Below are positions 3,891-14,335 of a stretch of DNA of 18,900 nt, piece after piece. Origin of the DNA: a virus; UHGV virus genome UHGV-1695514; one strand, given 5' to 3'. The notes below the pieces were generated by a model. It was not told where the DNA came from and made no database searches. It saw only the letters and a program-made list of their open reading frames with translations. Position numbers and translations under genes: made by a program. Position 1 is the first letter of the stretch. The number at the start of each line of letters is the position of its first letter.

Positions 3891-3908
3891 CATTTTATGC
3901 CCCGCCTC

Positions 3909-3960
3909 AGAGGATACGCTGCGTTACACTACCTAAACTATGGCGTATCCTCTTTTCTTC
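3909..3960 (+). terminator. hairpin with 11-bp perfect stem followed by a T-rich tract; probable terminator of the lysis cassette
   Basis: AGAGGATACGC (3909-3919) pairs with GCGTATCCTCT (3943-3953), loop 23 nt, then TTTTCTTC. The loop is longer than in a textbook intrinsic terminator. Confidence 0.45.
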
Positions 3961-4019
3961 ACATCTGTCGTCAGAGCTTGATATTCACGGCATCTAACTG
4001 TGCTTCATTCAACCTCATG

Positions 4020-4078
4020 TTGAATGATCCTGCTTAATGATGTAGATTTGATATGACTACAGTCATAACGTGTAGTCA
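4020..4078 (+). promoter_or_regulatory. candidate sigma70-type promoter with a hairpin/operator overlapping the predicted transcription start
   Basis: TTGAAT (4020-4025), 17-bp spacer, TAGATT (4043-4048). Immediately downstream is the inverted repeat TGACTACA (4054-4061) / TGTAGTCA (4071-4078), and a second palindrome GCTACG-CATACT-CGTAGC at about 4084-4101. Confidence 0.3.
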
Positions 4079-4164
4079 CATTCAAGCTACGCATACTCGT
4101 AGCCTCTAAACCCCACAGGGGGTCGCCGCAACGACAGCATTGTCTCAACGGCTAAGGTGGAAAC

Positions 4165-4563
4165 ATGCATAACGCACTTAACTCATCACGTTCTATTCAA
4201 ACGATTAGAGACTGTACCAACATGATCGCATCGGTTCCTTTGCGTCATTGGGATGACTCGCTCCAAATCCGAGAAATGGGCACACCAGGTGAACTTAAGG
4301 ATCAGCGTTTCATCATTACACTGAAGAGTGACGTGGAAGCAGGTAGCTTTACTATCAAATTATTTGCTGAGTTGATGGTTCTGAACAACCGTTTGCGCTT
4401 CCTCGTGAAGCCCGAAAAACAGTTTCCAGAAGTCGTTTACTGCGAAAGGCAAATTTTTTCGGATATCGAGAGTGAAATTGCTACTTTTGTTAAGGACAAG
4501 TACAGTGTAGATGTTAGTCTTGTCCGTACAGATAAATCAATGGACATGCGGCTTGCAAACTAG
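4165..4563 (+). CDS. hypothetical protein (132 aa), first gene of a low-GC two-gene island
   Basis: ATG 4165 preceded by AAGGTGG (4153-4159). No recognisable motif. The stop TAG 4561-4563 directly abuts the ATG of the next gene. Confidence 0.7.
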   Translation: MHNALNSSRSIQTIRDCTNMIASVPLRHWDDSLQIREMGTPGELKDQRFIITLKSDVEAGSFTIKLFAELMVLNNRLRFLVKPEKQFPEVVYCERQIFSDIESEIATFVKDKYSVDVSLVRTDKSMDMRLAN

Positions 4564-5352
4564 ATGGCACCTTCACTAATCGCGGATTACAAAAAGGTAC
4601 TCTCAGATTTCCCAGATCATGATAAACGCGAAAAAATCCGAGTCGGCTATACGGTTGGCTCGGATTTTTCTGTTTTGCGCCTTACTGAGTGGGCGTTGAC
4701 GGGGTCAAGTTACCCATATTGCCTCACTGTATCTGTGGTAGGGGCGCCAGATAATGAGTGGTTGCAAGAAATTGCAATAGAAATGGATGCCTCTGATAAT
4801 GATGAAGAGGAAATCATTGGCTACATACGTGCTTTAGTCGGTGCTGAACCTGAAGATGATGATGGCATCCAGATCGCTAGATTTGTATACAGAGATTTTC
4901 TGTTTCGGTCACAACAAGGTCACCACAGCGGAGTGCAGATTAAAGGTGCTTTTGTTGATCCTTCCAAGGAAAAGAAAGGCCTTGCCCGCTTAGTATATGG
5001 CTTCCTCCTTAACTGGCACGAGCATATCATCAGCGATGACCATCAGACGGTTTATGGGGCTAAGATATGGGCCGTTGGGATGTTAAAAGTAGGTAGAGTG
5101 CAAGTCTACGATAACATAAAAAGTGATTTTGTAGATGTGCTTACTGAAGGCGGTATCGGTATAAATGGATTCAAGCCTTGGGATGCTATGATGCTCAAAG
5201 AAGCACAGCTAAAGCACTGGAACCCTATGGCGATTAGTATAGACCCATCATCGCAGATTCTAGCCATCATTTCAGCGTCTGACAGGCATCAGTATAATGG
5301 TGTTACTGTTTTTAACAGAGTCGTTAGACGAAGGCTCAGAGTAACGAGATAA
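4564..5352 (+). CDS. hypothetical protein (262 aa), second gene of the low-GC island
   Basis: ATG immediately follows the upstream stop (probably co-translated). Acidic stretch (DASDNDEEEI, EPEDDDG). No recognisable catalytic motif. Followed by an intrinsic terminator. Confidence 0.7.
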   Translation: MAPSLIADYKKVLSDFPDHDKREKIRVGYTVGSDFSVLRLTEWALTGSSYPYCLTVSVVGAPDNEWLQEIAIEMDASDNDEEEIIGYIRALVGAEPEDDDGIQIARFVYRDFLFRSQQGHHSGVQIKGAFVDPSKEKKGLARLVYGFLLNWHEHIISDDHQTVYGAKIWAVGMLKVGRVQVYDNIKSDFVDVLTEGGIGINGFKPWDAMMLKEAQLKHWNPMAISIDPSSQILAIISASDRHQYNGVTVFNRVVRRRLRVTR

Positions 5353-5373
5353 ACCCGCTGCGGCGGGTTTTTT
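5353..5373 (+). terminator. rho-independent terminator
   Basis: CCCGC-TGCG-GCGGG hairpin (5354-5367) followed by TTTTTT (5368-5373), directly after the stop at 5350-5352. Confidence 0.8.
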
Positions 5374-5456
5374 GTTGCCATCCTTTAATTAACTCCAAAG
5401 TACCTACCATTTCACCTTTACACCGCAGCCGTAGGCATTTAGGCTATATCGCATAT

Positions 5457-5474
5457 AAGAAAACAAGTTGTTTC
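5457..5474. promoter_or_regulatory. palindromic operator-like element AGAAAACAAGTTGTTTC upstream of parA
   Basis: AAACAA-G-TTGTTT palindrome at 5461-5473, ending 35 bp before the parA start. A near-identical element (AGAAAACAACTTGTTT) precedes the helicase gene. Confidence 0.45.
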
Positions 5475-5508
5475 ATACGACGATAAATCACACGTAGGGA
5501 TATCACGA

Positions 5509-6174
5509 ATGACCCAGATCATTGTGGTGGGCGGCACCAAGGGTGGCCCAGGCAAATCGACTGTTGCTCAGCAAATTGCAGCCTGTCTGAAAATCAAAAA
5601 GAAAAAGAAAGTCCAGATCACTGATATCGACATCCAGCGCACCACGACAGGGTGGTGTGAAGACCGCCGGCACAATGAAGAACTGGAGCTGATCCCGTTC
5701 GCCTATGTCCAGGATGACATCATCAAACACATCACTTCGCTTCGCGGCCGTTTCGATTACGTCGTCGTTGACGCTGGTGGTTTCGACTCCGAAATTCAGC
5801 GCCAGGCTATGCTGATGGCCAACGTGATCCTTATCCCGCTTCGCCCGAAACGTCGCGATCTGAAATCCTTGCGTGACATCGACCCCATCGTCGACAGCGT
5901 TAGCAGCGTGAATGACCAAATCAAAATCCGTGCTGTAATGAACCAGTGCCCGTCTCTGCCTTCCCAGGCTGCGCGCATTATCGCTGCAAAAGAAATTGTC
6001 GAAACCTTTGGCATCGAGGCGGTACCGGTGAATCTTTACAACCGCAACGTCTATGACGATGCCGAAGAGGCGGGCCGTTCCATCTTTGAGATGACCGGAG
6101 CCGAACGCGACAAAAAGGCTGAGGCCGAGATTGAAGCATTAGTAGAATACGTAATGACCTTGGAGGGTGAATAA
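5509..6174 (+). CDS. parA: ParA-family partition ATPase, small type Ib (ParF-like, no N-terminal HTH)
   Basis: Deviant Walker A GGTKGGPGKST near the N-terminus, Walker B-like FDYVVVDAGG, overall ParF-like layout, 221 aa. RBS TAGGGA 8 nt upstream. Stop overlaps the start of the next gene. Confidence 0.8.
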   Translation: MTQIIVVGGTKGGPGKSTVAQQIAACLKIKKKKKVQITDIDIQRTTTGWCEDRRHNEELELIPFAYVQDDIIKHITSLRGRFDYVVVDAGGFDSEIQRQAMLMANVILIPLRPKRRDLKSLRDIDPIVDSVSSVNDQIKIRAVMNQCPSLPSQAARIIAAKEIVETFGIEAVPVNLYNRNVYDDAEEAGRSIFEMTGAERDKKAEAEIEALVEYVMTLEGE

Positions 6175-6536
6175 TGTCCATGAAAATGGGTGATCTGGCA
6201 AAACGTCCGGCTGCGGAAGCTGCTGCGCCTAAAAGCAGCACCCCGATGCGCCAGCCTGTCCGTCCACAAGGCCGTCCAACACGTGGCAAAGAGAAAATCA
6301 AAAGCCGCACGATGTCTCTTGAAGACGAGTATTTCGAATTACTGGAGATGATGAAGTTCATCCCTCGCTTCGAGAAGTTCACCCGTTCTGATGTGATACG
6401 TGCAGCCATTTTCCATCTGGCAGAGAAGTCCCCGCAGGAAATAGAGGACATCGTAAAGATGAACGAGGCGATCACCGCAGCCGATGTGACGATGCGTACC
6501 GATGAAATCAAGCGTGAGCTGATGAAGAAAGGTTAA
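6174..6536 (+). CDS. small basic partition/centromere-binding partner (ParG-like, putative ribbon-helix-helix)
   Basis: ATG overlaps the parA stop (TAATG). Basic Pro/Arg-rich N-terminal tail, then an RHH-like segment (KSRTMSLEDEYFELLEMMKF...SDVIRAAIFHL). Position matches the second gene of type Ib par operons. Confidence 0.55.
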   Translation: MSMKMGDLAKRPAAEAAAPKSSTPMRQPVRPQGRPTRGKEKIKSRTMSLEDEYFELLEMMKFIPRFEKFTRSDVIRAAIFHLAEKSPQEIEDIVKMNEAITAADVTMRTDEIKRELMKKG

Positions 6537-6581
6537 ATAAGAGGCGTCGAAAGATGCCTTTAACTCAAAAGGACTTTGTTT

Positions 6582-7340
6582 GTGCTGTACAAATACGTAG
6601 GGCATGAAGACCCAAACGAATTAATCAAAATTCTTAAATTCTTCATCGAAGATGGAACCATCCGAGCCACCCGGCCACACGACTTCAATGATCCTGCCGA
6701 GTTCAAAGCCAAATTTAGTTTTGACGCCACGATCCAAGAGAAGCTTGTCCGATATCATGAGATGTGGCCTGGCAAAAGCGACGATGACGGTGAGAACTGG
6801 TTAAGAGGGCGAACCAAAAACGCCGAAGAGTTTGACGCCTATATGCTGCGCGGAAATCTGCTTTTGGATACTGGTGTGATATGCCTCACCAGAACTGACA
6901 CTAATTACCTGATGTGGTCGCATTACGCCAGCTCCCACTCTGGATTTTGCATAGGGTTTGATGACGCTATTGTGGAAGCGCTGGATGACCGACACACAGC
7001 GTTAAACGGTGACGTGGAGTACGTGAAATCGCCGCCTGAAGTGAACTTCTATACCGCTGATGTGTACGACATTGTCAGAGCCATCTTTCTGCACAAGGGT
7101 GAGAGCTGGAAGTACGAAGAAGAGTTCCGGATTATCTCTGAGCTGCCAGGGCTTAAGAAGTTGGACACCTCGCTCATCAAAGAGATTTCTATCGGATGCA
7201 AACCCTATCCAGAGCTGGAAAGTTTTGCCCGTGAACTGCTGGACAGCAATCTGGCCGTGTACAAAATGCTTTGCCCTACCGACTCGTACCAACTGAAGCG
7301 TGTGGAGCTGGACAAGAACCTTTCTTTTCAAGGTTACTAG
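6582..7340 (+). CDS. DUF2971-like protein of unknown function
   Basis: N-terminal LYKY motif, FNDP-AEF, and a central MWSHYA...GFCIGFD block resemble my recollection of the DUF2971 family. Start is ambiguous: GTG 6582 (AAGGA 9 nt upstream) or TTG 6576. Lower GC than flanking genes. Confidence 0.5.
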   Translation: MLYKYVGHEDPNELIKILKFFIEDGTIRATRPHDFNDPAEFKAKFSFDATIQEKLVRYHEMWPGKSDDDGENWLRGRTKNAEEFDAYMLRGNLLLDTGVICLTRTDTNYLMWSHYASSHSGFCIGFDDAIVEALDDRHTALNGDVEYVKSPPEVNFYTADVYDIVRAIFLHKGESWKYEEEFRIISELPGLKKLDTSLIKEISIGCKPYPELESFARELLDSNLAVYKMLCPTDSYQLKRVELDKNLSFQGY

Positions 7341-7361
7341 TTCTGGCAGCTTCAATTAAGA

Positions 7362-7427
7362 ACCTGCTTCTGTATATATAAATACTAAGTTACTTATTAT
7401 TATTTATACGGAAGCAGGTCTTTTTCT
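7362..7427 (+). terminator. 9-bp perfect stem enclosing a 40-nt AT-rich loop, followed by CTTTTTCT; terminator-like or regulatory hairpin
   Basis: ACCTGCTTC (7362-7370) pairs with GAAGCAGGT (7411-7419). The loop contains the palindrome TAAGTTACTTA (7386-7396). Confidence 0.4.
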
Positions 7428-7501
7428 ATGCCAACTTCCCAGACACATTCCCTTCCGTTTCCACTTCCAAAAAACATCTCCAGTCGCTATGATCTGTCAA
7501 A

Positions 7502-7519
7502 TAGTAAGTAAGTAGTTAC
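7502..7519. promoter_or_regulatory. TAGTAAGTAAGTAGTTAC motif; candidate operator/promoter element
   Basis: GTAAGTAAGTAGTTAC at 7504-7519, 15 bp upstream of the ATG at 7534. Its exact reverse complement occurs at 14320-14335 upstream of phoH. Confidence 0.45.
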
Positions 7520-7533
7520 CTATCGGTGAGGGC

Positions 7534-8259
7534 ATGAGCCAGATCTTTTTTGACACCATAAACAACGGCCAGTACGACTTCATGACAGAGTGGGACACGG
7601 TCGCCATGGACAAGTGGGTTGCGGAAAACATCGGTCTTTCACGATGCCAGGGGGAGGCTGAGCTCTTTGATACAAAGTGGTTTGACTATCGCGACATGCA
7701 CCCGCTGATGGCAACCTGTCTGTTCACCGAAGCCTATAAGCGCGCATACTCACAGATCATGCTGTCTCATGGCCGCGAGCATTTCGAGACGGCGCCATTC
7801 AGCACTGGTCTGAAACGCCTGCCTTACCAAGAGCTTTCGGCGGTGAACAAAACCTCTCTCTGGAAAGCTCGCCAGTTTGCAGATCGGTATTGCTGTTCTT
7901 ATGACTATTTTATATCAACTGTTCTCTCTGCAGCTGCACGCCGGCTCTGGGACAAATTACCTCGCCCTCAGCATCTTTGGCAGCCAGAACTGATTGAGAT
8001 CTTCGAAAGCAAACTCGCCAGTCGTGCGGGAACGCGTCTGGATGACTCTGTAGTGAGTTTTAAGCACTTAGGAGACATGCAGCATGACCCAATTCAGGAA
8101 CGTTACTTTGAATGGGTTCTGGAGCGTTTGAAGCACATCACCCGTGATAAGCGTATCCGCACCATCTTCTCTGCTGTCTGGTTGATGGAGCTGGTGCCTG
8201 AGCGCGTTATCTATGCCCATTACCCGGAAGAACTGGAAGAAGCACGGCGACTGTGTTGA
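7534..8259 (+). CDS. hypothetical protein (241 aa)
   Basis: Long ORF with uniform coding-like composition; no recognisable motif. Confidence 0.65.
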   Translation: MSQIFFDTINNGQYDFMTEWDTVAMDKWVAENIGLSRCQGEAELFDTKWFDYRDMHPLMATCLFTEAYKRAYSQIMLSHGREHFETAPFSTGLKRLPYQELSAVNKTSLWKARQFADRYCCSYDYFISTVLSAAARRLWDKLPRPQHLWQPELIEIFESKLASRAGTRLDDSVVSFKHLGDMQHDPIQERYFEWVLERLKHITRDKRIRTIFSAVWLMELVPERVIYAHYPEELEEARRLC

Positions 8260-8282
8260 TTGCCTGTTCCATATTTTTACGA

Positions 8283-8300
8283 TTAGAAAACAACTTGTTT
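8283..8300. promoter_or_regulatory. palindromic operator-like element AGAAAACAACTTGTTT upstream of the helicase gene
   Basis: AAACAA-C-TTGTTT palindrome at 8288-8300, 23 bp before the ATG at 8324. Matches the element upstream of parA at 17 of 18 positions. Confidence 0.45.
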
Positions 8301-8323
8301 AAGCACCAAAGGATATCAAACAC

Positions 8324-9664
8324 ATGACCGAACTTTGCCACACGGGACGAGGGTTGTCTGAAGAGTTCGACGACGACTTCCAGAATCGTCTGGCGGCGTA
8401 TTTTTGCCGCGATCATGAGTTTCTGACTCGTGCCGGCGATCTGGTTGCCCCCAACCAATTCTCCAATGCGGCGAACGCCATACTGGTGAACATGGTATCG
8501 GGCTATTTCAGAATGTATAAGAGCGCGCCGTCATCGGCGGCCATCCTCGATATGTTGAAGCGTGCTAAACGCGATAAGACGATCAGAGAAGAGATGTTCC
8601 CGGATGTTGTGGCGGCGTTTAAGCGGGTGCTCTCGGAAAAACTCTCTGATACGGCTTACATGGTCGACCAGGTCGCGACGTTCGCTAAAAGTGTAGCGTT
8701 CGACGATGCGTTGATTAAAGCGGCCGAGATGAAGGAGAAGGGCGACTTCCAGGGAGCGATGGCCATCATGGCCAAAGTGCAGCAGATCGGTTCTAACGAA
8801 GCGACGGGCATTTATGACTATTACGCCTCTGCAGCGGAACGTTACAAGGCCCGTGAATATGAAGCCTCTGATGATTACGTGCCGAACAGCATCACCACCG
8901 GTCTTCCGCTGCTGGATCGCATGCTTTATCAAAAAGGTTGGGCGAAACGTGAGATGGTGCTCTTCATGGGGTTTGCGAAATCAGGTAAATCGACAGCGAT
9001 GGGGGAGTTCTCCATTAACGCAACGCTGGCCGGCTACAACGTTTTGTATCTTTCTCTCGAAGTGCATACCTCGATTCTCTCCGATCGCTTCGATGCACGG
9101 CTGTCTGAAACGGAGATGTCAAAGCTGGTAGAGCAGCGTGACGACGTTCACCGGAAACTCGCGGAGCTTGGCGCGACGAAAGGGGTGGGGAATCTCTGGG
9201 TGGTTGAGCGCCCGTCAGGAAGCATGTCGCCTGCAGATTTGGATCGTATGCTCAATAGCATGAAAGCGAATGGCATGATCCCGGATATGGTGGTGGTCGA
9301 CTATGCGGACTTGATGCGTGCCAGTTACGACCTCCGTGACGACCGGGCGAACATCCGTTCTATCTACACCGATCTGCGTGCTCTCTACGATAAGCACAAC
9401 GTTGCAGGAATCACGGCATCCCAGACCAACCGTGAAGGTGGCTCATCCGAAGTGGCCACCATGATGCACGCCGCAGACAATATCGAAAAAGTCCGTATCG
9501 CCGACTTAGTCATCACTATCAACAAGACTGAGGAGGAAGAAGCCAAAGGTGAAGCACGACTCTATTTTGCTGGTTCCCGTAACCAGAAGGGCGGGGTGAG
9601 TATTCGCGTTAAGCAGAATCTCGAACAGATGCGCTTCATCGAGCGGATCATGGAAGTTCTTTAA
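8324..9664 (+). CDS. DnaB-like replicative DNA helicase (RecA-fold ATPase)
   Basis: Walker A GFAKSGKST, Walker B-like MVVVDYADLM, helicase-like C-terminal region (ITASQTNREG); 446 aa; adjacent to a primase gene. Confidence 0.75.
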   Translation: MTELCHTGRGLSEEFDDDFQNRLAAYFCRDHEFLTRAGDLVAPNQFSNAANAILVNMVSGYFRMYKSAPSSAAILDMLKRAKRDKTIREEMFPDVVAAFKRVLSEKLSDTAYMVDQVATFAKSVAFDDALIKAAEMKEKGDFQGAMAIMAKVQQIGSNEATGIYDYYASAAERYKAREYEASDDYVPNSITTGLPLLDRMLYQKGWAKREMVLFMGFAKSGKSTAMGEFSINATLAGYNVLYLSLEVHTSILSDRFDARLSETEMSKLVEQRDDVHRKLAELGATKGVGNLWVVERPSGSMSPADLDRMLNSMKANGMIPDMVVVDYADLMRASYDLRDDRANIRSIYTDLRALYDKHNVAGITASQTNREGGSSEVATMMHAADNIEKVRIADLVITINKTEEEEAKGEARLYFAGSRNQKGGVSIRVKQNLEQMRFIERIMEVL

Positions 9665-9671
9665 AAAAATA

Positions 9672-9712
9672 GGCGTGGGGCAAAGACGGATAACAGCCCC
9701 ACGCCCTTAAAA
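9672..9712. terminator. 9-bp GC-rich hairpin flanked by A-run upstream and weak T-tract downstream; possible bidirectional terminator
   Basis: GGCGTGGGG (9672-9680) pairs with CCCCACGCC (9697-9705), loop 16 nt. The downstream U-tract on the + strand is weak (CTTAAAAATT); on the - strand it is followed by a T-run. Confidence 0.4.
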
Positions 9713-9746: not shown

Positions 9747-9815
9747 ATGAGCCTTTATGGTATTCAAAAAACGCGGCTTATCAAGATATTGCCGTTTAAA
9801 AACTGCGGTAAATGA
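9747..9815 (+). CDS. possible 22-codon upstream ORF translationally coupled to the primase gene
   Basis: AAGGA (9735-9739) 7 nt before ATG 9747; encodes MSLYGIQKTRLIKILPFKNCGK. Its TGA (9813-9815) overlaps the primase ATG (9812-9814), which itself has no obvious RBS. Confidence 0.25.
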   Translation: MSLYGIQKTRLIKILPFKNCGK

Positions 9816-10933
9816 CAATGAGTGACCTCAAAGAGTTACTGTCCGAGCTGGATTTCGAACAATGGCTGGATATGGAAGGCATCATCTATCGTCGCGGCGG
9901 TGTAAGCGCCCGCGGCCGCGAAGTGAATATCAAAGAATGTCCGGTATGTGGAAGCACAAACTGGAAGGTCTATTTCAACCTGACCAACAACGTCGGGAAA
10001 TGCTTCGCCGGCGATCACCCAGAAGAAATTCAATTTAATAAGCTGGTTTTCCTCAAACACTACAGCGGTAAGTCTCGTCGTGCCTTTGAGGAGTACGTAC
10101 ATAACGCACTCCTGTCTCAAGGTTGGGCGCCAAAAAAAGAAGAGGTTGTGCTGGCCAGTGCTGTGGAACTTGAAGGCCCGGTGGCTTTACCGCGGCATTA
10201 TGAACTGCCAATTGACGGTCGGCTGCCGGACTATCTTGTTGAGCGGAACATTACCCCGGAGCTGGCCAAATATTTTGACCTGCGTTACTGCGTCGAGGGA
10301 AAACATGCTTATGTCGACCCATATACCGATCAGGTAAAAGGGCAGGCATTCGATATGCGCATCCTGATACCGATTTACGATCTGAATGGGGTGATGAAGA
10401 CATTCCAGGGGCGTGACGTCACCGGCGCAGCAGAACGTCGATATCTCTTTCCAATGCAGCTGCCGGCATCCGGGAGGTTTCTCTACAATGGACATAACGC
10501 AGTTGGTAAGCAAACAGTCGTCGTCTGTGAGGGGGCTTTCGATGTCATGGGGGTTAAGCGCGCCATATTCGACGAGGAAACACTCCGGGACTACGTAGAG
10601 CCCATTGGCACGTTCGGGATGCATCTGTCCGGAAACACGACTGTAGACGCAGAAGACCAGCTGGGCGCGTTTCTGTCGTTAAAGGCTGATGGTCTGCGAA
10701 ACGTCATCATGATGTGGGATAGCGAGAAGCAAGCGATCCGAAACACAATGGCGGCCGCCAGACGATTAGCCAGTATAGGGTTAAATGTGAAAATAGCCTG
10801 TCTTGGAGAAGAAGGGCTAGATCCCGGGGAGGCCACCCAGGAACAAATTCTCAAAGCCTACTATCGTGCAAAACCCTACTCTAAGCAACTGGAGCTGCAG
10901 AGCAAGGTTCTCGGTATTAGTGCATTTAATTAG
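9812..10933 (+). CDS. DNA primase (zinc-ribbon plus TOPRIM, DnaG/T7 gp4-primase-like)
   Basis: Zinc-binding-type CPVCGS...(14)...C-x4-H near the N-terminus; TOPRIM signature VVCEGAFDVMG (E-G-x-x-D) and a downstream acidic MWDSE motif; located next to the helicase gene. Confidence 0.7.
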   Translation: MTMSDLKELLSELDFEQWLDMEGIIYRRGGVSARGREVNIKECPVCGSTNWKVYFNLTNNVGKCFAGDHPEEIQFNKLVFLKHYSGKSRRAFEEYVHNALLSQGWAPKKEEVVLASAVELEGPVALPRHYELPIDGRLPDYLVERNITPELAKYFDLRYCVEGKHAYVDPYTDQVKGQAFDMRILIPIYDLNGVMKTFQGRDVTGAAERRYLFPMQLPASGRFLYNGHNAVGKQTVVVCEGAFDVMGVKRAIFDEETLRDYVEPIGTFGMHLSGNTTVDAEDQLGAFLSLKADGLRNVIMMWDSEKQAIRNTMAAARRLASIGLNVKIACLGEEGLDPGEATQEQILKAYYRAKPYSKQLELQSKVLGISAFN

Positions 10934-11053
10934 TTCGACTCATGGCTGTAGTTCCATATCCGTGTCGGAAATACCATAATTTTTTTATGGATGTAGGTAT
11001 CTACTTAAATATTTTAATGTAATAAATAACACTTTGGTTATGGAGGACATCAC

Positions 11054-13082: not shown

Positions 13083-13108
13083 TAGGTAAGTGTTTACTTA
13101 TTAAGTTG
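13083..13108. promoter_or_regulatory. GGTAAGTGTTTACTTATTAAG motif (TAAGT-N4-ACTTA inverted half-sites)
   Basis: Same half-sites as the 2387 and 7386 palindromes; lies at the start of the long non-coding tRNA region. Confidence 0.35.
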
Positions 13109-13809: not shown

Positions 13810-13884
13810 GATGGTGTAGCTCAGTGGTAGAGCGGTTGACTGTTAATCAGCTGGTCGGTGGTTCGAATCCCCCCACCATCGCCA
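13810..13884 (+). tRNA. tRNA-Asn (anticodon GTT)
   Basis: Manual cloverleaf: 7-bp acceptor GATGGTG/CACCATC, U8-A9, D-arm GCTC-AGTGGTA-GAGC, anticodon arm GTTGA-CTGTTAA-TCAGC (anticodon at 13842-13844), T-loop TTCGAAT, discriminator G and encoded CCA (13882-13884). One U-C mismatch in the T-stem. Confidence 0.7.
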
Positions 13885-13973: not shown

Positions 13974-14041
13974 TGATGAATTGCAGCTCGTTGAAGCAAC
14001 CAGAAGATAAGCATCTGGCGTCACAACGAACGGAGGATAGA

Positions 14042-14128
14042 GGGCATGGCGCCCAAGCGGTCTTGAAAACCGTCCCATTGCGAAAGCGATGATGGTTCGA
14101 TTCCATTATCCTCCGCCAACACAGCGTT
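14042..14128 (+). tRNA. tRNA-Ser (anticodon TGA), class II with long variable arm
   Basis: 7-bp acceptor GGAGGAT/ATCCTCC, anticodon arm GCGGT-CTTGAAA-ACCGT (anticodon at 14074-14076), variable arm with GAAA loop, T-loop TTCGATT, discriminator G and encoded CCA (14126-14128); 87 nt. The D-arm is atypical in my hand fold. Confidence 0.65.
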
Positions 14129-14297: not shown

Positions 14298-14319
14298 GCA
14301 TAAACGCCCTTGTCGTTAT

Positions 14320-14335
14320 GTAACTACTTACTTAC
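14320..14335. promoter_or_regulatory. GTAACTACTTACTTAC, exact reverse complement of the 7504-7519 motif
   Basis: 16-nt exact inverted match to GTAAGTAAGTAGTTAC, located 56 bp upstream of the phoH start. Confidence 0.45.

Follow-up and report, generated by a model that had tools for sequence, protein, structure and literature searches.

A variable cargo slot in an SSU5-family phage-plasmid of Klebsiella and its DUF2971 gene, a candidate anti-phage defence gene

Prophages of the P2/P4 group carry defence genes at fixed positions of their backbone, namely at the cos-proximal hotspots and at the Z/fun locus of P2, which has been cited as a defence locus (PMC13586616). Aristaios, a DUF2971 protein encoded on lactococcal plasmids, is a single-gene abortive-infection defence (PMC11381338). 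The DUF2971 family has been placed in the ADP-ribosyltransferase (ART) superfamily by a study which points out its resemblance to DarT and AbiGi, its strictly conserved tyrosine and ExE motif and the poor conservation of its histidine (PMC12522546), and a second, independent study has also assigned it to the ADP-ribosyltransferases (PMC11381338). Here we analyze an 18,900-nucleotide stretch of viral DNA (UHGV virus genome UHGV-1695514; the whole stretch is called the window below) in which a DUF2971 gene, gene A (6582-7340, + strand), is followed by a long hairpin (7362-7428) and by gene B (7534-8259, + strand), which encodes a 241-aa all-alpha protein. Gene A is swappable single-gene cargo in a hyper-variable slot of the phage backbone. 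Taken as a whole, with the roles that we propose for the hairpin and for gene B, the best explanation of the locus is that gene A acts as a prophage-encoded anti-phage defence and not as an anti-defence gene, a reading that we hold to be somewhat more probable than not.

The stretch 5400-9700 of the window shares 99.7% identity with NZ_CP089764.1, a non-mobilizable IncFIB plasmid of Klebsiella pneumoniae, 97% with Klebsiella phage pJN2-26 and 85.7% with Salmonella phage SSU5, and 741 plasmid records match it in all. The open reading frames (ORFs) of the window include a tail fibre, a lysis cassette, ParA, a DnaB-like helicase, a primase and PhoH. From these identities and this gene set we therefore take the window, by its sequence, to be part of an SSU5-family phage-plasmid of Klebsiella. 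Clinical Klebsiella, E. coli, Salmonella and Shigella commonly carry phage-plasmids of the SSU5 type.

The cargo slot between partition gene and hairpin

The partition unit 5' of the slot lies on the + strand and starts with a ParA-type partition ATPase (5509-6174; Pfam AAA_31, MipZ, CbiA and ParA; phrog_164), followed by p120 (6174-6536; phrog_5111), a basic ParA partner of 120 aa (pI 9.6). On the other side, downstream of gene B and on the same strand, lie a DnaB-like replicative helicase (8324-9664; Pfam DnaB_C; phrog_19) and a DNA primase (9812-10933; phrog_47), whose DNAG_N (E 1.6e-5, 25.4 bits, cut-off 26) and Toprim_2 (20.8 bits, cut-off 22.1) matches fall slightly under the Pfam cut-offs. 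These Pfam and phrog matches bear out the first-pass annotation of the window, made from the sequence alone, in that gene A and gene B do sit between a partition module (ParA and its small partner) and a replication module (helicase and primase).

We collected 80 SSU5-like loci from IMG/VR, 73 of which span both flanks of the slot and are the basis of the slot counts; the ORFs of the interval were clustered and the cluster representatives scanned by profile. In all 73 loci p120 adjoins ParA, and directly 3' of its stop codon, which is the left boundary of the slot, the sequences of the relatives diverge; the right junction lies within ~25 nt of the long hairpin. The flanks of the slot are 83-100% identical while the cargo varies, and the distance from the p120 stop to the gene B start ranges from 206 to 2214 bp. 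The slot is empty in 4 of the 73 loci and holds a DUF2971 allele in 23 (100/96, 50, 43, 36 and 26% identical to gene A, the 26% allele on the opposite strand), all of which match the PADLOC model PDC-S31. It is occupied by a GIY-YIG protein matching PD-T4-3 in 15 loci (E 1e-23), by a 387-aa protein matching PD-T7-5 in two (E 5.5e-138) and by KAP-family NTPases matching PDC-S49 in eight. Further occupants are a minus-strand protein of 357-374 aa with no Pfam or PADLOC match (15/73) and, likewise with no match, membrane-protein pairs (about 11/73) and a lipoprotein (1/73). PD-T4-3 (CMoRE) has been characterised by experiment as a modification-dependent restriction enzyme (PMC12923530) and PD-T7-5 is listed among the systems of Vassallo 2022; both have been reported in SSU5-type elements, with the location not stated there.

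In the window the cassette covers 6537-7341 (~805 bp) and gene A is its only gene, the stop codon of which abuts backbone sequence: the right junction, TCTGGCAGCTTCAAT.A.GAA (7341-7361), is common to the empty-slot loci L062, L064 and L068. By tblastn, gene A is found at 90% identity or more in 124 plasmid records, with 280 more below 60%, and gene B in 828 records, 721 of them at 80% or more. The co-occurrence in related phages that the first-pass annotation proposed to analyze for the two genes thus parts them, gene A being variable cargo and gene B constant. At the left end of the cassette, the cargo leader (6537-6581, + strand), as read from the sequence, contains a small hairpin, AGGCGTC-GAAA-GATGCCT (6542-6559), and a Shine-Dalgarno sequence, AAGGA (6569-6573). 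A simple scan of this leader found no terminator-like or promoter-like site; the same terminator scan overlooked the long hairpin, the apparent loop of which exceeds the loop limit of the scan.

The slot resembles Z/fun and the P2/P4 cos-proximal hotspots (PMC13586616) in that it has a fixed backbone position at which unrelated defence genes alternate, in either orientation, and which is sometimes empty; it differs from them in lying on a phage-plasmid and in its flanks, a partition gene and a terminator-like hairpin. A limited literature search found no earlier description of the slot as a hotspot. If it is a defence hotspot, SSU5-type elements would have a part in deciding to which phages, therapeutic ones among them, their hosts are open, and new defence genes could be sought in the slot at little cost.

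Several features of the slot and its other occupants were recorded alongside. Directly 3' of the p120 stop there is a short GC-rich hairpin that is different in each cargo (6537-6560 in the window; also L014, L018, L029, L042, L046, L063 and L065), and these cargo-specific hairpins could be attenuators, the cargo's own terminators or recombination signals. The minus-strand protein of 357-374 aa (L014, L027, L028, L037, L061, L077 and others; L005:2695-3768 on the minus strand), which sometimes stands beside a DUF2971 allele, is a candidate new defence gene. The membrane-protein pairs come in three divergent versions of ~214-255 aa plus 136-174 aa (L003:3137-4181 on the + strand; L012, L016, L031, L039 and others) and stand alone or upstream of DUF2971, the latter as in SSU5 and pJN2-26; they might be superinfection-exclusion or abortive-infection pairs.

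Gene A as a candidate defence gene

Gene A encodes 252 aa and begins, as had been read at first pass, at a non-ATG codon, GTG at 6582, with the Shine-Dalgarno sequence AAGGA 8 nt 5' of it; RefSeq gives the same start, which is further supported because pJN2-26 has ATG at the equivalent codon. The suspected DUF2971 membership is confirmed by a match to the full Pfam model (PF11185, positions 1-89; 39.9 bits, cut-off 22; E 1.1e-9), and the homologues found for gene A all carry the PF11185 annotation. The PADLOC model PDC-S31 matches residues 2-240 on model positions 9-255 of 259 (E 6.6e-34), a full-length match shared by all five DUF2971 alleles of the slot; PDC-S31 is a candidate single-gene entry in PADLOC-DB and not a validated system, and we found no mention of it in the literature searched. 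A profile search of PDB sequences with gene A gave no match at E up to 10. The gene had also been described as AT-rich relative to its neighbours, which holds in direction (48.4% GC against 51-53%) but is marginal in size: the window as a whole has 49.9% GC, the GC3 of gene A (58.5%) is neighbour-like, its codon-usage divergence is unremarkable, and the genes at 4165-5352 are much more AT-rich (42-44% GC). So small a deviation is of no use as evidence of foreign origin.

Structure prediction, proposed as a check at first pass, gave a confident AlphaFold model (pLDDT 95, built on 58 homologues). The closest folds to this model are the DarT and Tpt1 ADP-ribosyltransferases, and it contains the ART core fold of the DarT/Tpt1-like branch. 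Gene A has all the residues that are invariant in the 58 homologues (K4, N36-D37-P38, W112-S113-H114-Y115, Y147, K172, W176, Y178-E179 and R183) as well as E181, which is kept in at least 90% of the DUF2971 homologues and completes the pattern Y178-E179-x-E181. On strand 1, an invariant Y-K-Y (K4) occupies the place where the His/Arg of ART motif I would stand, and we equate W-S-H-Y and Y-E-x-E with ART motifs II and III on the basis of the published family description, not by superposition here (PMC12522546). Judged by its modelled fold, the gene A protein is probably an ADP-ribosyltransferase, and because all family-conserved residues are present it is probably active.

The relation to the described enzymes is distant. 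DarT of the DarTG system, a single-stranded DNA thymidine ADP-ribosyltransferase, is only 9-15% identical to gene A over ~125 aligned residues, and gene A differs from it in having large helical inserts and in belonging to a family in which the motif I histidine is not conserved. It also differs from DarTG in that no DarG macrodomain antitoxin adjoins it, the cassette holding a single gene and the neighbouring gene B being all-alpha with no Pfam domain; because gene A is without an antitoxin, this is not a DarTG system. Aristaios (Lactococcus plasmid pUCCL641_199), compared by its published description, shares the DUF2971 domain with gene A but is a protein of 316 aa from a Gram-positive host. 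What is new here is a DUF2971/PDC-S31/Aristaios-type gene in a prophage hotspot, the families themselves being already known. If gene A does act alone, it would be a Gram-negative, prophage-borne addition to the ADP-ribosylating defences, and it would raise the question of how a DarT-like enzyme stays harmless without an antitoxin.

In the explanation that we favour, the partition genes and the cargo would form one + strand unit that ends at the hairpin and is on in the plasmid state, an arrangement that would suit a defence gene. Joint expression of gene A and the partition genes in the plasmid (lysogenic) state is suggested because gene A lies on the same strand as they do and no terminator was detected in the 45-nt gap between them. 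The protein would most likely be a single-protein abortive-infection-type defence similar to Aristaios. When another phage infects the cell, the enzyme would consume NAD+ and ADP-ribosylate a target, most probably a nucleic acid given that the closest folds are DarT and Tpt1, and the replication of the invader would be stopped at the cost of the cell.

The location of gene A is that of a defence hotspot, in a slot common to PD-T4-3, PD-T7-5 and PDC-S49, and relatives of it occur in other elements. A 38%-identical DUF2971 protein is encoded in P2-like prophages of E. coli, between the tail-fibre assembly and sheath genes, a position that we take to be the Z/fun locus, and a 49%-identical one in a Serratia integrative island. 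Plasmid p2 of K. pneumoniae Kp1604 has the same gene layout as the window and a DUF2971 protein identical to gene A at 251 of 252 positions. Curing Kp1604 of p2 raised the plating of three phages 10-100 fold and also raised transformation efficiency (PMC8969562).

A number of points weigh against the defence reading. Plasmid p2 also encodes a type I restriction-modification system, by which its phenotype is confounded, so that the plating effect is not assignable to the DUF2971 gene. PDC-S31 is a candidate family and Aristaios a distant member of DUF2971; the slot-mates imply a shared function and do not prove it, and about a third of the slot contents are of unknown function. The co-transcription of gene A with the partition genes is deduced only from strand, the 45-nt gap and the null result of the simple promoter and terminator scan, and the covariation in the hairpin at which the unit would end is not significant against shuffles (51/500 and 126/500), because there is too little variation. 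Finally, phage ADP-ribosyltransferases with takeover or anti-defence roles exist, the precedents being Alt and Mod (ModA and ModB) of T4 for takeover and AcrIF11 for anti-CRISPR activity.

These precedents lead to the first rival explanation, in which gene A, and perhaps gene B, would serve anti-defence or host takeover, with a phage ART modifying a host defence protein or the host machinery early in infection. Gene A is indeed phage-borne, variable and predicted to have an ART fold, it stands just 5' of the replication operon, and the identities of the DUF2971 alleles (96, 73, 50, 43, 36 and 26%, against 83-100% for the flanks) would fit any arms-race gene. The first-pass annotation took the positions of both genes to be typical of such functions. 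For gene A this was right as far as an accessory, conflict-related position goes, but the company it keeps points to defence: the slot also holds two validated systems, PD-T4-3 and PD-T7-5, besides defence candidates, the PADLOC models that match gene A are those of candidate defence systems, a relative sits in the presumed P2 Z/fun locus, and Aristaios defends. Moreover, gene A is joined to the partition unit and cut off from the lytic replication operon by the terminator-like hairpin. For gene B the claim failed, as it is a core, helicase-linked gene and not an accessory one, present in the backbone of all relatives whatever the cargo and syntenic with the helicase in 80 of 80 distant loci. 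We regard anti-defence or takeover as an improbable function of gene A.

Least probable of all, in our estimate, is that gene A is a DarT-like plasmid-addiction toxin for post-segregational killing with its antitoxin nearby or in trans: DarT toxins are among its closest folds, it lies beside the partition module, in relatives the slot 5' of parA is filled by toxin-antitoxin pairs (KacT and its antitoxin in Cyrano; DUF1778 and GNAT in p4-20710) and the window itself encodes a YafO-type toxin, but the cassette is one gene between junctions at 6537 and 7341, neither a macrodomain nor any other candidate for an antitoxin is present, gene B occurs whether DUF2971 is there or not and is itself free of a macrodomain, and the DUF2971 genes of the P2 prophages and the Serratia island are solitary.

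Gene B, the hairpin and the replication operon

Gene B matches phrog_2500 over its full length (E 4.4e-109) and has no match in Pfam, NCBIfam or PADLOC, nor, by profile search, among PDB sequences at E up to 10. The predicted structure, which the first-pass annotation had also proposed as a check, has a pLDDT of 86; fold searches with it gave no convincing match (Foldseek against viral predicted structures returned nothing below E 0.47) and found neither a helix-turn-helix nor a known DNA-binding fold. Searched by profile, 1.84 billion representatives yielded at least 854 clusters at E <=1e-3, all of them phrog_2500 where checked.

The gene is present in all 80 SSU5-like loci, each time next to the DnaB-family helicase gene. 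In 80 of 80 distant viral loci, in which gene B is 24-39% identical, it is followed downstream on the same strand first by a DnaB-like helicase, itself 34-44% identical, and next by a primase; none of these 80 has ParA, p120 or DUF2971. Pseudomonas phage nickie and Rhizobium phage RHEph10, of virulent type and with no partition module, show the order lysis genes, PhoH, gene B, DnaB, primase. We therefore place gene B in the phage replication module, into the 5' side of which the partition genes and the slot were inserted in the SSU5 lineage. It belongs to a large family, as yet uncharacterised, whose linkage to the helicase is unusually strict. No confident homology assigns gene B to a housekeeping phage function, an assignment that the first-pass annotation had said would refute its reading, but the conserved synteny does point to such a function, namely a replication role. 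As an antitoxin or partner of the DUF2971 protein gene B was ruled out, since it occurs in all the relatives that are without DUF2971.

DnaB-family helicases normally need a loader, which in phages is usually encoded beside the helicase (lambda O/P, SPP1 G38P-G40P, T4 gp59/gp41). Because gene B adjoins the phage DnaB helicase as loaders usually do, we tentatively assign it a role as helicase loader or replication-initiation factor, an assignment to which we give a little less than an even chance. Like the known loaders (lambda P, SPP1 G39P, T4 gp59 and DnaC), gene B encodes a small protein, lies directly beside a DnaB-family helicase gene and is conserved with it; unlike them (DnaC/IstB, lambda P, T4 gp59, DciA and G39P), it has no loader-like sequence and no convincing fold similarity, and it is without ATPase motifs. 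As the first gene of a conserved putative operon of gene B, DnaB-like helicase and primase, it may help to load or recruit the phage DnaB-type helicase when lytic replication is initiated. With such a role assigned, the replication module would have one gap fewer across a wide group of siphoviruses of 100-120 kb. The larger proposition, that the slot is an undescribed defence hotspot of the SSU5 supergroup, that its unannotated occupants are new anti-phage systems and that phrog_2500 is a new family of DnaB-type helicase loaders or initiation factors, is put forward as less likely than not.

The main alternative for gene B is that it encodes a regulator of transcription or some other accessory factor of the early or replication operon, such as a replisome organiser or an origin-binding initiator acting on TTCC repeats. 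It is the first gene of the putative operon and lies directly 3' of a conserved region in which TTCC repeats and a palindrome occur; nucleic acid could be bound by its conserved basic and aromatic motifs (KWFDYR, TGLKR, WKARQ and LPRPQ), and it has no similarity to known loaders. However, the fold searches revealed no helix-turn-helix or known DNA-binding fold, and across homologues at 24-39% identity the helicase is the only invariant neighbour. In RHEph10, moreover, gene B overlaps the end of phoH and so has no upstream intergenic region, and for this reason we regard the TTCC region as lineage-specific. We hold a regulatory or other accessory role of this kind to be rather unlikely, if less so than the rivals to defence. 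One distant homologue, P0212, has an N-terminal HNH endonuclease domain and is probably a homing-endonuclease fusion.

The region upstream of gene B (7430-7503, + strand) is nearly invariant among the window, pJN2-26, SSU5, Cyrano, p4727 and the IMG/VR loci. It contains five TTCC repeats (7436-7467) and a -10-like TATGAT (7488-7493), which may mark a promoter, and a direct repeat ACTTCC...CAT occurs in two copies. The TTCC block is nearly invariant even in ~80%-identical relatives, more conserved than the flanking coding DNA, and could be a set of binding sites for an activator or initiator. Directly beyond this upstream region, 12-30 nt 5' of the gene B ATG, lies a GTAAGTA-type element (7504-7522) with the palindrome TAAGTA-GT-TACCTA (7505-7522), overlapped by GTAAGTAAGTA. 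This is the copy of the motif that had been ascribed to gene B at first pass, and it is conserved 5' of gene B in all relatives. On its 3' side come a Shine-Dalgarno sequence and then the gene itself.

The motif is a recurrent one. GTAAGTA occurs 9 times in the window against 1.16 expected (0 of 200 shuffles reach 9), and TAAGTA-NN-TACYTA, with up to two mismatches, has 17 matches against 1.17 expected, all of them intergenic. The palindromes cluster in five intergenic places (2384-2401, 7505-7522, 10994-11007, 13083-13100 and 14317-14334). In the SSU5 genome (loci L177 and L178) GTAAGTA is found 25 times, where about 4 copies would be expected. Most of the SSU5 copies fall between annotated genes, ~20-110 nt 5' of start codons, and the genes that follow them are structural ones as well as those of replication and nucleotide metabolism. 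Over the window and SSU5 together, such sites precede late, lysis and metabolic genes as well as replication genes. The dyad symmetry points to an operator bound by a dimeric regulator. P1, with its scattered C1 operators, offers a model for such a set, and the palindromes could be the operators of a prophage repressor, similar to C1 of P1, or else a phage-specific promoter element. At gene B they would provide the replication operon with a putative operator-like site next to its putative promoter region.

The long hairpin (7362-7428, + strand) consists of arms at 7362-7381 and 7400-7419 followed by CTTTTTCTA, with a U-run, CUUUUUCU, directly 3' of the stem. The hairpin noticed at first pass 3' of gene A is real, with a dG of -31.4 kcal/mol and a z of -6.7 (0 of 200 shuffles as stable), but its supposed 40-nt loop is not: the region is mostly self-complementary and folds as one long stem with a 3-nt apical loop. 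Nor does the palindrome in that loop belong to the GTAAGTA family, since the apex TAAGT-T-ACTTA occurs once against 0.4 expected (68 of 200 shuffles have at least one) and differs from TAAGTA-NN-TACYTA in the spacing of its half-sites.

The hairpin is kept in all 47 distinct sequence variants of the relatives whatever the cargo, including those with empty slots, in which it lies 35-40 nt 3' of the p120 stop; it is therefore a backbone element and does not belong to the DUF2971 gene. In the alignment, 98.2% of the 448 cells in 14 base pairs are paired, and nearly all variation passes through G-U on the + strand (C-G to U-G, G-C to G-U, U-G to U-A or C-G). Read on the other strand, these changes would produce A-C mismatches, a pattern that fits a + strand RNA element such as an intrinsic terminator. 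The element combines a stable stem, a U-run and conserved pairing, as expected of an intrinsic terminator, with a stem of unusual length, the upper part of which is rich in AT. A search of 6500-7600 against Rfam gave only a spurious match of the AT-rich hairpin to a miRNA precursor. We infer that the hairpin would act as a terminator in + strand RNA, closing the partition-plus-cargo unit and insulating the next operon.

The AT-rich hairpin and the TTCC repeats could instead be a replication origin, as an unwinding element with iterons. The 36-nt stretch of ~8% GC between GC clamps, its position beside five short repeats and the helicase-associated gene directly 3' of it would fit an origin. 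Against this, the substitutions in the arms keep their pairing through G-U on the + strand only, as an RNA element would, a U-run lies 3' of the stem, the element of empty slots stands directly 3' of the partition gene, where a terminator is expected, and the distant relatives nickie and RHEph10 have gene B without it. The origin is accordingly a very unlikely alternative to the terminator, ranking between anti-defence and plasmid addiction in our estimate.

Other features of the window

A second variable slot lies at 3900-5500 of the window, between the lysis cassette and parA. In the window it holds two AT-rich genes (4165-4563 and 4564-5352; 42-44% GC; phrog_2594 and phrog_3307), in Cyrano and E. 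hormaechei p4-20710 an acetyltransferase-type toxin-antitoxin pair, and in pJN2-26 a different, minus-strand gene. Two tRNA genes lie on the + strand at 13810-13884 and 14032-14118, for Asn (GTT) and Ser (TGA), of which only the first is confirmed at the Rfam gathering score.

The YafO-type toxin is encoded at 16528-16938 (E 3.5e-24), within 15901-16938 on the + strand, and a 205-aa ORF 5' of it may be the antitoxin; on the opposite strand, at 17002-17361 (-), follows a colicin E1 immunity-like protein. Farther on, where the GC content climbs to 57-60% from about 17800, the Rfam group II intron D1-D4 model is matched over its full length by 17721-17946 (+; 186.6 bits, E 3e-55). This match suggests a group II intron that has inserted in the phage-plasmid and runs past the end of the window.

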